Shown one piece after another: positions 2,615 to 48,349 of a stretch of 58,896 bases of DNA. The notes under the pieces were generated by a model. The model ran no database searches. It was not told where the DNA came from and saw nothing but the letters and a program-made list of their open reading frames with translations. Location: the NCBI GenBank assembly GCA_030324005.1, contig JARDVH010000001.1, forward strand, positions 146,479,945-146,538,840, given 5' to 3'. Numbering within the stretch: position 1 is the first letter of the stretch; every line of letters starts with the position of its first letter. The stretch comes from Negaprion brevirostris (Eukaryota). A program made the position numbers and the translations under genes.

Positions 2615-2723
2615 CTTTTCTATAGTAGATCTCAAAAGCAAAAAGATGGGTTTCAATTTTGTTCTTTACCAAGGTTTTCAGAGGAGTCAAAAATTTAATG
2701 GCTTCTTCAAGTGGACTGTCCAC
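2615..2723 (-). CDS. NAA15: NAA15 exon 16 (109 nt) [36 protein letters not shown]
   Basis: Acceptor aaatag, donor gtaagt; manual translation. Confidence 0.95.
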
Positions 2724-3281
2724 CTATTTAACAGAAAACAAACTTGTGAAGATTCTGGCTTTGATGCTGCAAAAGCTCTAGCAACAATGTTTATGTTGGT
2801 ACCACCTGGGGTGAGGACACCAATTGGTCCTCCCTGACATCCAAGAGCACTTCCATGAGACAGTATTTGGGATCAGAGGCTCTGCACCATTCCTCATCTC
2901 ACAAACAGTGTTGCAAAACTGTGGCAAATGAACAGCTGTCTTATTTTAGGAGAAATAATGCTGCACAGAACAAAGGTTTTTCTGGTACACAAGAGATAGC
3001 TAACTAGTTTGGCTAATCATGAAATATCAGGTTGACACGTTGCATTTTTAACATTATTGTTTAGAAAATTCAGTTTAAACAAGGGACTACTTTGGCTGAA
3101 GGGCAGTAAAGGCAGGGAAGAAACAGGATGCAAAACAAGGAGCTCAAGTTCCCAAGAAAAACAGAAGTTCAAAAACTATAATCAAAGGCATCCCAAGTCC
3201 TTGGTTGCATGGTATTTTTGTTAATCTACTCCACATAGACAACCCAAACTTCAGAGTAACGACACAAGCTTTGTTGCATAC

Positions 3282-12155: not shown

Positions 12156-12246
12156 CTATAAAAATAAAAAAGATCCTTAAAACTTTCTCCTTTGAAACAA
12201 AATTAACAATTCAAGAGCTCAGATACAGTATGAACAAAGCAATTAC

Positions 12247-12353
12247 CTTCTCTTTATCATTGTATAATGACTTCAGGGTTGTAAACACAGGAGGACAACC
12301 TTTGCTGAAATTTATCCTCAAATATTTGTCCAAAACCTCTCTGAACTTTTCCC
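12247..12353 (-). CDS. NAA15: NAA15 exon 9 (107 nt) [35 protein letters not shown]
   Basis: Acceptor tgccag, donor gtaatt; manual translation. Confidence 0.95.
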
Positions 12354-13621
12354 CTGGCAGGAAGAGAAACAGTTCAACAGACTTCCATTACTGAACATGA
12401 CTGATAACCAGCAATTTCTTCAATAAAGTTTTGAAAGCAATTTTGCATGGCTATAGATAGTGGACTGGTAGGCTATTCCAAGAGCGATATCATAAATCCA
12501 GTCAACATAGCAGCTAAAAAGTCCCGGAAATAAATCAAGATCATTAGGCTCTCCATATCTGTCCAAGAGGGGAGGACATCGGATGGGATGCATTTGACAT
12601 ATTAACTTTATTTTGTCAAAGGATCCAGAAAGAATAATCTGCTCACATGGGACAATAATCAAATAAACACTCCAACAGTTTTCGTTGGATTTAAATCAGG
12701 GTAACAACTAAGAATTCATTTGTTATGTACCAAAGAGCAACCAAACCGGAACAGCCCTGGCAGAAGGACTGTCTGATATACTCTCCCAAGTGCATATCAC
12801 TAATGCTCTATTGTCTGGGGACCCAAATCTTCTTTCATGTTTCATTTCAGCTAATATTAAGTGAATAACTTAGTTGAAATTTACGGGCCAAAACGACAAT
12901 AATCAGTTAATGTGATGGCGCAAGCACAAAAGCAAGTCAACCAGCACCTCCAAGTACTTGTTGCGGAACCTATACCAAACCACAGTTTTCGGGTTCCAAT
13001 GTTCATGGCGAGGACTAGAGATGTAATAATTGTCAGGTATATCCAAGGCTCAGTGAACAAAGGAAACATTAGACAAAATTATTAACTGGTTTTCTTGAAG
13101 CCTATTACCAATATAGAATACATTGGAATTTAAAGGCCATGGCAGTGACCCCATCCACTGGCTGGAAAGCCAGGGGCAACACTGCCACAGCCATTTCTAG
13201 AAGGCCTGAGAGGATTAGATATTAAATCAGGCAGTTTACTGCCTGGTGTCAGGACTACCATGTCTTCAGAAATCCAGCCTCCAAGTCCGACAGCACCACT
13301 GGAAGCAATGGTAACTGCTGGCCCTGCAAGAAGCCAGGAGCAGCAGGCATGGATCAGTCCCCAGAATTAGCTAAGCAGGGACCCTGGCCACTCAGGATAG
13401 CATTTCACCCTCATCTTCTCTCCCAATTCTACTGCACCATCACCATGTTCCCAGGGGGAAGAGAAGGATTACATTTCTCTCATTGCCTTTTGGGGGGGAA
13501 AAGGAGTGAACACTCTGAAAACTAAGAATTTTAAGAGGTGCTCTGCACAAAATCCTTGCTGAATTGACAAATTCAGCCCATAACAGAAAATTTAGACTCC
13601 ACAACATGGGTGTATGATAAA

Positions 13622-14158
13622 GATGTGAAGATGCCAGTGTTGGACTGGGGTAAGCACAGTAAGAAGTCTCAATACCAGGTTAAAGTCCAACAGATTTGTC
13701 AGCACTAGCTTTCAGAATCTCAAGCTCCTTCATCAGGTGAGAGAGGACTTGTAAATTGAGTTTGTCTTTATATGCCCTGCTTGTGTTCACAAACTAATGG
13801 TTGGAATGCGAGTCTTTACAGGTAATCAAGTCTTAAAAGGTACAGACAGTGCAGGTGGAGAGAGGGTTAAGCACATGTTAAAGAGATGTGTATTGTCTCC
13901 AGCCTGGGCTGGCAATACACATCTCTTTAACCTGTGCTTAACCCTTTCTCCACTCATACCATCCGTACCTTGAAGACTTGATTACCTTTAAAGACTTGCA
14001 TTCCAACCATGATCTTGTAAATTGAGTTTGTCTCTTTATATGTCCTATTTGTGAACATAACTTCCACTCACCTGATGAAGGAGCTTGAGGCTCTGAATGC
14101 TATGCTGACAAATAAACCTGTTGGACTTTAACTTGGTGTAGTGAGACTTCTGACCGTG
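13622..14158. mobile_element. Penelope-derived non-autonomous fold-back element with a hammerhead-like motif in each arm
   Basis: Arms about 13655-13904 and 13907-14158 are reverse complements around ccagcc-tg-ggctgg. Extra terminal tail on the left; imperfect flanking repeat atgataaag/ataataaag; CTGATGA...GAAA motif. Confidence 0.75.
13703..13739 (-). ncRNA. Putative minimal type I hammerhead ribozyme motif
   Basis: Minus strand reads CAC-CUGAUGA-AGGAGC UUGA GAUUCU-GAAA-GC-UA-GUG: both core boxes, stem II, a palindromic AGCU in place of stem III, and a 3-bp stem I. Activity untested. Confidence 0.5.
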
Positions 14159-14367
14159 AATAATAAAGGCCAGATAATATTTGAAAATGGAGGAAGCTCA
14201 GGTGACCCAAATAAATTGTCTAAGGGTCAAATGGGTTGGAAGAATGGGAACTAGATCAGATTATTCCTATCCATCTTCATTCAATGTGATTTAAGCAGAC
14301 AAATCCATCCTATCAGAGCACAATCTTGATTAACATTTTGCTTGGAAACAAGTCAGAAACATTGCCA

Positions 14368-14666
14368 TAGAATCCGTGCAGACGGAGGCCATTTGGCCCA
14401 CTGACTGGCAGAATTCCTGACCCCAGCCATTTCCCCACACATTTATCCATCTAACCTACACATCTTGGAACACTACGGGGCAATTTACCATGGTCAATCC
14501 ACCTCACCCGCACATCACTACAGGAGGAAACTGGAGCATCCAGAGGAAACTCATGCAGACATGGGGAGAACATGCAAACTCCACAGACAGTCACCCAAAG
14601 CCAGAATTGAACCCAGGTACCTGGTGCCAAGGCAGCAGTGCTAACCTCTGTGCCACCATGATGCCC
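14368..14666 (-). mobile_element. HE1/V-SINE
   Basis: Reverse-strand tRNA head, V core and CR1-like tail. Confidence 0.8.
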
Positions 14667-15216
14667 TCCACAAGATGGAACAACAATATTTCACCTGTTC
14701 CATAGAAGTGGGAAGAATCAGCCTGAAAGAAGTTTCTTATTTTGCCTGCAAGCAACAAATCACTAAATCCCCAACATTGTAAACACTCCATAGCCAGGTA
14801 GGCCATTCAGAGAAAGGCTGAGGCACACAGAACAGTAACTAATCAAGGACATATCAGCAATGTCACTGTATTAAGCTTTATTCTGAGGACATGAACACTG
14901 GCAAAATAAATTAGGAGATGCTATTGCTGTAAAGTGTAAGCACAAACTTTTCAGGGGCTTGCTAGCCCATGTCATCATATGCAGTATAACACTGATTTCT
15001 TCCAGCAAAAAATAGCCCAATTTTATGAAACAGTACAGGTTTTAGATTCTGTACCTGTATGGCTATCATTGAGCTGATAAAATAGCTAGGTAGGTACATA
15101 AAAAACCTCATTAAAGAAAATTCTAATAAGCATTAAAAATGCTCTCACATAACTATTAATTAATTTAAAAAAGTCATTGGATAACTGAAAATTTTTGAAA
15201 TGATTATTTCACTTAC

Positions 15217-15312
15217 CAGATAAGAAGTTAAGAGGTAGCCTTCTAGGCACAAGCCCTTTAGGATACTTAGTCCAAGCATTTTCATAGACATCAAGTCGCT
15301 CCTCGACATTGA
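15217..15312 (-). CDS. NAA15: NAA15 exon 8 (96 nt) [31 protein letters not shown]
   Basis: Acceptor ctttag, donor gtaagt; manual translation. Confidence 0.95.
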
Positions 15313-15498
15313 CTAAAGATAGAATTTGAAAAGAAAACAGTTCATAGGGTTAAGTTAATTCTATAAATCAAAAATGAAATAGATTGAAAAGCTGACTCTT
15401 CAATGGTTTAGCATCATCTGCTGATCAGCTAAACAATGCAAAAAGTGCCGATTTCAGGTTGGGTTAACTCAATTGCAAAAACTGGGGACAGCACTTCT

Positions 15499-15983
15499 TA
15501 GAATCATAGAACCCTACAGTGCAGAAAGAGACCATTCAGCCCACTGAGTCTGCACCGACCACAATCCCACCTAGGCCCTATCCCCATATCCCCATGCATT
15601 TACCCGAGCTAGTCTCCCTGAAGGGGTAATTTAGCATTCACAATCCANNNNNNNNNNNNNNNNNNNNNNNNNNNNNNNNNNNNNNNNNNNNNNNNNNNNN
15701 NNNNNNNNNNNNNNNNNNNNNNNNNNNNNNNNNNNNNNNNNNNNNNNAGGGGCAATTTTAGCATGGCCAATCAACCTAAACCACACATCTTTGGACTGTG
15801 GGAGGAAACCCATGCAGACACGAGGAGAATGTGCAAACTCCACATAGACAGTGACCCAAGCTGGGAATTGAACCCAGGTCCCAGGAGCTGTGAAGCAGCA
15901 GTGATAACCACTGTGCTACCATGCCACCCACTAAGGGGCAATTTTAGCATGGCCAATCAACCTGACCTACACATCTTTGGACT
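15499..15983 (-). mobile_element. HE1/V-SINE spanning a gap, followed by a duplicated internal segment (15931-15983)
   Basis: Tail tagaatcatagaaccctacagtgcag; head ends about 15929; repeated aggggcaattttagcatggccaatcaacct. Confidence 0.8.
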
Positions 15984-46560: not shown

Positions 46561-47904
46561 TATGATGAGTCCATTCTGTGGGGCAACAAGACATTCCTCT
46601 CAGATGTCTTGATAAGGATCATTAGTGCCTCTTATGTTCTAGATCATGAGAAGAAACTAGAATTGCATTCCAAATAATTATGGTTTAACGAACATAAGGT
46701 GCTGCCTTTAATGTGAAACTGCACACACTTCGTCTATAGCATGAAGTGTACTACTTACTGGGAGTACAATTCCGGCTGATTTTTTTGTTAACCAAAATGC
46801 ATCAGCTCACATTAATGCATAATTCCATCTGTCAATTACCCACGCCAGTATCTCTTTAGTTTTGTATGATCTGGAGAATTAAGTACACTTTTATTTTGGT
46901 TTTACAGTAATTTCTCATTTAGTGTCATAGTTACATTGAGAAGTGCAACTTTTAGCAAAACACATTTTCCCATTACAAACTAATGTATAAAGTGGAATTT
47001 GGTTCCTTTAGGCATTTGTCACCAGGAAAAAAAAAGCACAATTGAAATAGTGTACATGCACAGTACATACCAGATGAAATAAAGTAAAATACATTTCTGA
47101 ATGTAAAAGATATAAATTTAAAATATTCACAGCAGTTTCAACATTGAACAAACTGACAATGAGAAAAGCATTGTTAAACATAGGATTATTGAATAGAATG
47201 CAGATGTCAGGATCAAGTCAGATGGGATCAGGATCATTGACAAAAGAGATTGCAGAGAGTAAGTATTCCAAACAGACAGAAAAGTTAACTAAGTGGGATA
47301 GAAGGAGCAGCAAGGACGCCAAGAGCGCCAAACAACTATGAATAATTCATGAGGATAAACTGAAACATCCAGACAATTAGTAAAAACTGAGAGTTGATGT
47401 TATTATGTTAGTTTGGATGTGTTTTCTTGTTGGATTCCATGCTTGTGTGTTTATCCCTGTTAGCTCCTCAGTTTGTTTTAGAAAAAGTTCCTTTATCTTA
47501 CGTACAGACTGAATAAGCAAAAACAATAAAATCCTTTTTTGATCTCTGGAGAAAGGTACTTGATCTAAAAATGTTAACTTTTTCTCCGTCTACAGACTCT
47601 GGCAAACCTGCTTAGTATTTCCAACATTTTTTGTCTTAGATTATAATCAAATCGGTTATTCACTGGTGGTAATTCATTAAGTACTGGGTTTTAAAATCTG
47701 TGGCCACTGAATTCAATAAAGAATGAGGCTGATTTCATCAGTAAATTCTCCTGATCGTGGTCCGTTGACAAACATATTGGTGTCGCAACATTAAAGGGAT
47801 AGATGTTTCCTATCGTGTTATGAAACCACCATGACCAAATCTTAAGTGAGAAGTCACTGCATCTAAAAATTTCAATACGACTTCATTTGTATATATCCAA
47901 ATCA

Positions 47905-48111
47905 CAATTAGAAGTCTCACAACATCAGGTTAAAGTCCAACTGGTTTATTTGGTAGAACTAGCTTTCAAGGCCTCAAGCTCCTTTTTCAGGAAGAAGGAG
48001 CTTGAGGCTCCGAAAGCTAGTACTGCCAAATAAACCTGTTGGACTTTAACCTGGTGTTGAGAGACTTCTTATTGTGCTTACCCCAGTCCAACGCCAGCAC
48101 CTACACATCAC
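47905..48111. mobile_element. Second, shorter copy of the same Penelope-derived fold-back family
   Basis: Inverted arms about 47905-47990 and 47991-48075, plus a ccccagtccaacgcc tail; exact 10-bp direct repeat ATCCAAATCA at 47895-47904 and 48112-48121. Confidence 0.8.
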
Positions 48112-48349
48112 ATCCAAATCATCCATACCTAGAGTAAATAAATTTGACACAAGAGCTGAATCCTGCGAAAAACCATTCCACATTTCTTACCACTGAAAAA
48201 AAATCTCTTCAACCAGAATTGTTTTCTCCAGAAATCCAGTTTGCCATCTTCCCTCCATAATCTCCAGTGTGGTTCCTTCTCAAAGCTTTTTTGCCATTTT
48301 ACCAATCCAGTTTGGGACTGATCCTTTTTCAAATCAGAAAGATACAGCA

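Follow-up and report, generated by a model that had tools for sequence, protein, structure and literature searches.

Structure and setting of the insertion

The window, a stretch of 58,896 nucleotides of contig JARDVH010000001.1 of Negaprion brevirostris, contains at positions 13622 to 14158 a non-coding insertion located between two consecutive minus-strand NAA15-like exons, the upstream one with its reading frame at 15212 to 15349 and the downstream one at 12214 to 12387, which match residues 268-304 and 300-342 of solved NAA15 as well as Pfam PF12569. The original prediction had already placed the insertion in NAA15, which fits these NAA15-like exons (NAA15 or NAA16); its label of intron 8 would agree with human exon numbering.

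As originally described, the insertion consists of two arms in inverted orientation that are 76% identical: a left arm (13622-13904) with its sense on the minus strand and a right arm (approximately 13903-14158) with its sense on the plus strand, the alignment of 13655-13904 with 13907-14158 extending over 261 columns at 76% identity (E ~1e-41). The left arm is the 5'-truncated 3' end (3' UTR and pseudo-LTR, pLTR) of a Penelope-like element (PLE), likely of Neptune type, and aligns with positions ~2722 to 3010 of a 3013-position family profile; the right arm is a 5'-truncated pLTR whose 3' end lies at -33 from the ATG. A terminal tail of 33 bp is present on the left arm only (13622-13654, minus strand), matching the one-sided tail first noticed, and adjoins the ATG of the open reading frame (ORF) in 5'-complete copies of the family. 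Both arms begin ~45 nt past the ORF stop known from longer copies, in keeping with their description as non-coding. They meet head to head in the sequence CCAGCC-TG-GGCTGG (13899-13912), in which CC is shared by the arms, the arm ends are at most ~4 nt apart, the loop is 2 nt long, and the hammerhead core is ~172 nt downstream. The flanking duplication is imperfect, as had been reported, but it is better read as 13 bp (11 of 13 alike) than as 9 bp: its left copy GTGTATGATAAAG (13610-13622, plus strand) shares its final base with the tail end and its right copy GTGAATAATAAAG (14156-14168, plus strand) shares GTG with the no-tail end. This target-site duplication (TSD) overlaps both ends of the element and has a score of 7, which is reached by 24 of 992 mismatched flank pairs.

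The right arm contains a predicted pLTR promoter (14035-14068, plus strand), recognized from sequence: a TATA-like box TTTATATG (14035-14042) stands 31 nt ahead of an initiator-like (Inr-like) CCACT (A at 14066), with equal spacing in most long arms of the family. The TATA-like box of the left arm is flipped relative to the family orientation by a private internal inversion of ~40 bp (a 38-bp piece, 13748-13785, plus strand), a feature that the earlier reading overlooked. This piece could be an inversion or a transposition with CTTGT microhomology, has the appearance of template switching, and is apparently also present in a contig of a related organism. Antisense to the hammerhead front of the right arm, the minus strand at 14080-14064, which is the NAA15 sense strand, reads CAG/GTGAGT, a candidate splice donor that agrees perfectly with the donor consensus; in the family consensus it is present in every antisense arm.

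A second, shorter fold-back of the same family (47900-48109, ~210 bp) has its junction at the hammerhead core, its tail on the right arm and a 10-bp TSD ATCCAAATCA (47895-47904 and 48112-48121); its subfamily type, marked by the GGAGCTTGAGG stem, matches that of the 13622-14158 copy. Another abundant repeat, SINE-like in appearance, occupies 14330-14640 and 15630-15950, and contig depth is very high from 14377 on.

Contigs of the related organism span the right junction, and one of them includes a portion of the left arm, in which 4 of 108 letters differ; the flanks show 15 differences in ~496 and 14 in ~351. The insertion appears to be shared by these contigs and is thus apparently older than the split between the two organisms, and the differences give, in this small sample, no sign of extra conservation of the element. 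No empty-site joint was found among the matches listed, which came from contigs of three runs.

The coding parent element

A genome search with the element returned 10,606 candidates, of which 40 were scored. Single-arm matches continue upstream into a frame whose last residues before the stop are GLNRDLGFMSH-like, and a walk further upstream passes through an endonuclease region with a PCHSNLCKTC linker and the thumb and core of a reverse transcriptase (RT) to the N-terminus. The Pfam model RVT_1 matches one copy (L175) at E 6.9e-8, over the cut-off, and another (L081) at E 8.6e-5, under the cut-off; Pfam gave no match on the endonuclease or N-terminal fragments. An intact database relative of 881 residues (P0001), in which the linker reads PCNSILCKTC, is 59% identical over 99% of the 407-residue RT-endonuclease frame of L081, 49% identical to the N-terminal frame of the family and 56% identical to its C-terminal frame. 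No solved structure similar to this relative was found, and two shark database proteins contain fragments of the family at 68-77% identity. The arrangement of RT and, after it, a GIY-YIG-type endonuclease within a single ORF is seen in the broken copies as well as in the intact relative.

The arm sequence also borders the ORF at its 5' end: the tail directly adjoins the ATG in five of ten loci examined (L154, L157, L160, L174 and L178), the pLTR is repeated ahead of the ORF as a partial tandem in L154, L157, L174 and L178, and L154, L174 and L178 possess an inverted arm upstream as well. Judged from sequence, the arms are almost certainly the pLTR of a PLE family encoding RT and GIY-YIG-type endonuclease, with a unit length of ~3.0 kb. 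The original prediction had connected the arms with Penelope pLTRs, a connection borne out by the upstream continuation into the endonuclease C-terminus and RT and by the attachment of arm sequence to a Penelope ORF at both ends. Dozens of copies are collinear across these joins, so that chimeric joins are unlikely. The family likely belongs to Neptune, an assignment based on the linker rather than on a tree, because the CX2-5CxxC linker marks Neptune or Nematis, which has a form of it, rather than Poseidon (PMC8557442), and because Neptune and Poseidon are reported as the PLE clades of vertebrates (preprint 10.64898/2026.07.22.740005). In the loci examined the family looks inactive, since none of the 89 loci fetched by coding-region queries contains an intact ORF (the longest open frame has 435 residues) and the best DNA matches are 84-88% identical.

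Hammerhead motifs and the possibility of a host function

Each arm contains the predicted CUGAUGA-stem-GAAA-GC-UA motif: 13739-13703 in the left arm (minus strand) and 14069-14105 in the right arm (plus strand). The plus-strand motif is broken by the change of GAAA to GAAT that had been noted and additionally by loss of the first G of the 3' strand of stem I. The minus-strand motif, a minimal type I hammerhead originally regarded as intact, retains its core boxes, but its stem II has decayed by three changes, which include conversion of G10.1-C11.1 to G-U and one C-A mismatch, and its predicted fold amounts to -0.8 kcal/mol. When the whole element is folded as the NAA15 sense strand, a long hairpin is predicted (-298 kcal/mol, 77% paired) in which this motif pairs with the opposite arm. 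A search of positions 12500-15500 with Rfam models gave no hammerhead match at E<=10, only generic hairpins far under their cut-offs. Neither motif is predicted to fold as a hammerhead, and self-cleavage or formation of circular RNA by this copy is predicted to be unlikely.

At the level of the family, the minimal type I hammerhead is genuine, with covariation in its stem. Among 66 motif-spanning arms, which were picked through fuzzy matches to the core boxes so that core-box conservation is partly built in and covariation is not, pairs 1 to 4 of stem II are paired in 65, 61, 65 and 60 arms, in six arms pair 3 is G-C instead of A-U, and in seven pair 4 is A-U instead of G-C. The observed Watson-Crick counts were reached by none of 5000 shuffles, a procedure that ignores relatedness. 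The free core position 7 is U in 46 arms, C in 17 and A in 3, and the base at the cleavage site is A, U or C in 63 of 66. This covariation fits a functional minimal hammerhead in the source elements (PMC4209133). In genomic copies the CpG formed by C11.1 and G12 is a site of decay, with G-U in 23 arms and loss of G12 in 17. One subfamily (L192, L250, L260 and L262) has GTGAGT after the cleavage site, resulting in a longer stem I, and its upstream part seemingly lacks the TATA segment.

Co-option by the host, with the minus-strand hammerhead or the 250-bp hairpin regulating NAA15 pre-mRNA, would draw on the position of the core-intact motif on the NAA15 sense strand, the long predicted hairpin and the apparent sharing of the insertion with a related organism; decay of stem II, burial of the motif within that same hairpin and, in a small sample, conservation of the element no greater than that of its flanks make such a role exceedingly improbable. 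The 13622-14158 copy is now passive and without detectable role.

Abundance and diversity of fold-backs

In a sample comprising the window, the 200 kb that follow it and 80 pieces of 10 kb from scattered sites, 54 loci of the family account for 1.45% of 884,617 non-N bases. One exact 16-mer of the family occurs 39,791 times in the genome, which corresponds to ~85,000-111,000 arms. Genome anchors carrying the core number 13,304, those carrying a motif at -25 number 7,099 and those carrying a motif at -95 number 3,985; the corrected genome-wide shares of arms reaching these points are ~72%, ~24% and ~17%, with the calibration of arm length based on only 15 long arms. Forty-one sampled loci retain a 3' end and are gap-free at the 5' end; two arms are present in 15 of them and some inverted partner in 21. 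These counts are probably too low, because assembly N gaps often begin inside or beside arms: such gaps at the 5' end, which may hide inverted partners, led to the exclusion of 24 of 156 arms and 23 of 60 long loci.

The original prediction interpreted the insertion as one of a separate non-autonomous, retrozyme-like family consisting of pLTR and ribozyme only and mobilised in trans. Under this reading, the unit of transcription and of re-insertion by the Penelope enzyme would be the whole fold-back, or a short, hammerhead-only version of it. Such a family could account for the frequency of fold-backs, for their possession of TSDs of their own and for the many short fold-backs with junctions near the hammerhead front. 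However, the arm forms the terminus of a coding element, no tandem head-to-tail array of the element was found, and the inversion point, far from being fixed, differs in all ten other fold-backs of the same size (judged by eye), although these had been picked for their likeness to the query. Short fold-backs vary in their junction letters and cover all subfamily types. The ends of long arms are likewise widely spread: in a set made up of the first 60 loci listed, with the sole requirement that they extend to 95 nt upstream of the hammerhead, the 37 arms kept have 5' or inversion points from -102 to beyond -1000, and only four fall in the bin of the 13622-14158 copy (-185 to -151). A preferred second junction near -175 had been hinted at by a selection-biased sample and was dropped on account of this low count. 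We therefore consider a separate family very improbable, with the qualification that the junctions inspected are a few dozen out of tens of thousands, among which a small fixed-junction lineage could escape. The differing junctions, the spread of long-arm ends and the lack of a tandem array indicate instead that the fold-back structure is made anew at each insertion, and the 13622-14158 element results from a single insertion, now decayed, and is a commonplace dead representative of a class already known.

Formation of fold-backs

The 3' ends of the family cluster at two fixed points separated by 33-36 nt; of the 145 ends that could be scored, 135 are at -41 to -26 or at -4 to +10 from the ATG. 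Tails could be scored in 32 of 39 two-armed fold-backs, and 28 of these have exactly one. A TSD of 10-16 bp with a score of at least 7 encloses 21 of 32 fold-backs, compared with 24 of 992 mismatched flank-pair controls. The arms of long fold-backs are unequal in 15 of 17 cases; the partner of a long arm is also long in 15 of 17, compared with ~17-24% genome-wide. In 17 of 20 fold-backs the two arms agree in subfamily type, where 45% would be expected, and in 11 of 19 the partner ranks within the closest tenth of arms. One fold-back, at ~174,550-174,780 of the stretch 146540001-146740000, has arms of clearly different subfamilies, the sequences of which suggest two different RNA templates.

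In the mechanism that we propose, the enzyme of the element would make a staggered cut of 10-16 nt and use both cut strands to copy RNA, so that each of the two 3'-OH ends primes a cDNA of its own, one at the tail end and the other at the no-tail site; the two cDNA ends would then be end-joined head to head, both cDNAs usually deriving from one RNA or one source. A biochemical precedent is the PAc protein, which cuts and extends both strands, is a predicted dimer, requires ORF sequence downstream, and starts reverse transcription in vitro at two adjacent internal sites that bound the tail (PMC11167929). Overlap of the TSD ends with the RT start sites by microhomology, mostly positive and dependent on boundary calls, is suggestive. 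At the junctions of L002, L006, L010 and L013, short stretches of neighbouring element sequence recur as templated repeats, a pattern typical of end-joining with re-synthesis.

Some observations do not sit easily with two primers: three of the 32 scorable fold-backs are two-tailed and one is tailless, one has the differing subfamilies mentioned above, and the arm ends at 13622-14158 are so close that only 2 of 17 long fold-backs are as symmetric. The near-perfect symmetry and 2-nt loop of this copy would be natural products of self-priming, in which a palindrome results when a single cDNA, or an antisense template, folds on itself and serves as the primer for its own copying, as inverted pLTRs have been read before (PMC3846280). 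Both arms also have the rare variant GCTGAC where other copies mostly have GCTGCC, and further symmetric cases exist (L125, L198, L312 and L327). Nevertheless, a palindrome copied from itself is difficult to reconcile with asymmetries of 25 to more than 600 nt in 15 of 17 long fold-backs, with arms from different subfamilies in one fold-back, or with a no-tail end that is a fixed point, is found in single copies too, and corresponds to the second RT start observed in vitro (PMC11167929). Self-priming thus appears unlikely, and the fold-backs probably formed from two separately primed cDNAs that were joined. With considerable confidence, the best explanation of 13622-14158 is a decayed insertion of two 5'-truncated 3' ends of a PLE, likely Neptune, set head to head, likely as a result of two-strand priming.

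Accumulation of 5' ends ahead of the hammerhead

The 5' ends of the 132 gap-free arms (156 minus 24) pile up just before the CUGAUGA box, with 34 ends at -8 to -1, 7 at -15 to -9 and 6 at -30 to -16; the corresponding numbers in 42 copies that have no inverted partner are 10, 0 and 2. Boundaries based on a hidden Markov model (HMM) broaden the peak to 28, 18 and 19 ends. An accumulation at the hammerhead cleavage site (approximately +29) was considered and rejected, as its first hint came mostly from copies abutting N gaps: in the gap-free arms there is no excess at this site, with 16 of 132 ends at +21 to +35 and 13 of 132 at +8 to +20, counts that are blurred by subfamily indels.

The pile-up, 1-8 nt ahead of the hammerhead core, coincides with the TATA/Inr-like site, CCACT. 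Copying that begins at the pLTR-ORF junction would run off the 5' end of the transcript at the Inr, before the hammerhead, and such run-off would account for most family copies being short. As an alternative, the near-palindrome TCACCTGATGA, which begins at the site of the pile-up, could make joining more likely at this point without any transcription start. The palindrome also confounds an inspection by eye of the 5' ends for an extra G derived from a cap. We lean, by a narrow preference, towards run-off at the start of transcription from the predicted promoter. The 13622-14158 copy is a longer, rarer case outside the 5' peak, and would need a read-through template because it extends ~170 nt beyond the run-off point.

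Implications

The 13622-14158 locus is in itself unremarkable, and its value lies in the family-level clues that it offers to the mechanism of insertion. The origin of inverted pLTRs and one-sided tails in PLEs has been called unresolved (PMC8557442), and the two RT starts in vitro are reported without an apparent tie to inverted copies (PMC11167929). The combination of one tail per fold-back, an enclosing TSD and unequal arms favours two primers as the source of PLE inverted pLTRs, a reading that yields exact predictions for the existing PAc in vitro system. The pile-up at the Inr would explain the thousands of lone minimal hammerheads in vertebrates without invoking a retrozyme cycle. In a broader proposal to which we give an even chance, the ~100,000 stubs are a fossil record of Penelope insertion, with a staggered cut of 10-16 nt, two internal RT starts, usually one RNA and mostly run-off at the Inr; the commonest product would then be a ribozyme-sized stub or hairpin made anew, from a template that is usually uncut by the hammerhead.

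Comparison with known systems

The layout of the insertion is already published (PMC3846280, PMC8557442), as are opposite-strand hammerhead pairs (PMC4209133). Our literature search, conducted with most subscription journals outside its scope, found no description of this shark family or of a 5' pile-up at a pLTR initiator; the family may already have a name in Repbase or Dfam. PMC2377424 and PMC6155905 served as general background only.

Non-LTR retrozymes resemble the shark element in being non-coding, related to pLTRs, equipped with a type I hammerhead and of a 150-450-bp scale (PMC7229834; 10.64898/2026.07.22.740005). They are, however, head-to-tail tandem repeats that give rise to circular RNAs (same sources), whereas the shark element consists of two arms set head to head, its minimal motifs are decayed and lie on opposite strands, and it has none of the same-strand, head-to-tail tandem hammerhead units by which retrozymes are recognized. 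Closer in arrangement are the pairs of minimal hammerheads on opposite strands, 100-700 bp apart, of Schistosoma, which have likewise been read as truncated PLEs, in a different host and family (PMC4209133).

With Neptune PLEs (PMC8557442) the family shares a C-terminal GIY-YIG-type endonuclease with CCHH cysteines and the upstream CX2-5CxxC linker; as a difference, no microsatellite targeting was noticed, without counting, in the flanks inspected. Two fixed 3' ends that bound the tail, with a minimal hammerhead just upstream, are shared with PAc, the Poseidon element of Anolis, but in PAc the ORF start is inside the hammerhead (PMC11167929), whereas the shark ATG follows the tail, ~120 nt downstream of the core.

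The most similar known insertions are those of Pen2a_Av of the rotifer Adineta, which have an inverted pLTR, a tail, a TSD of 8-10 bp, and a TATA box and TCACT initiator in the pLTR (PMC3846280), and endonuclease-containing (EN+) PLEs in general (scheme in PMC8557442). The shark copy differs from these in its TSDs of 10-16 bp, in a tail that ends at the ATG rather than within the ORF and in retaining no ORF, because both arms are truncated inside the 3' UTR. It agrees with them in the head-to-head inverted, 5'-truncated copy, the tail of 30-40 bp at one end, the short TSD, and a pLTR with a TATA box and an Inr-like TCACT or CCACT.
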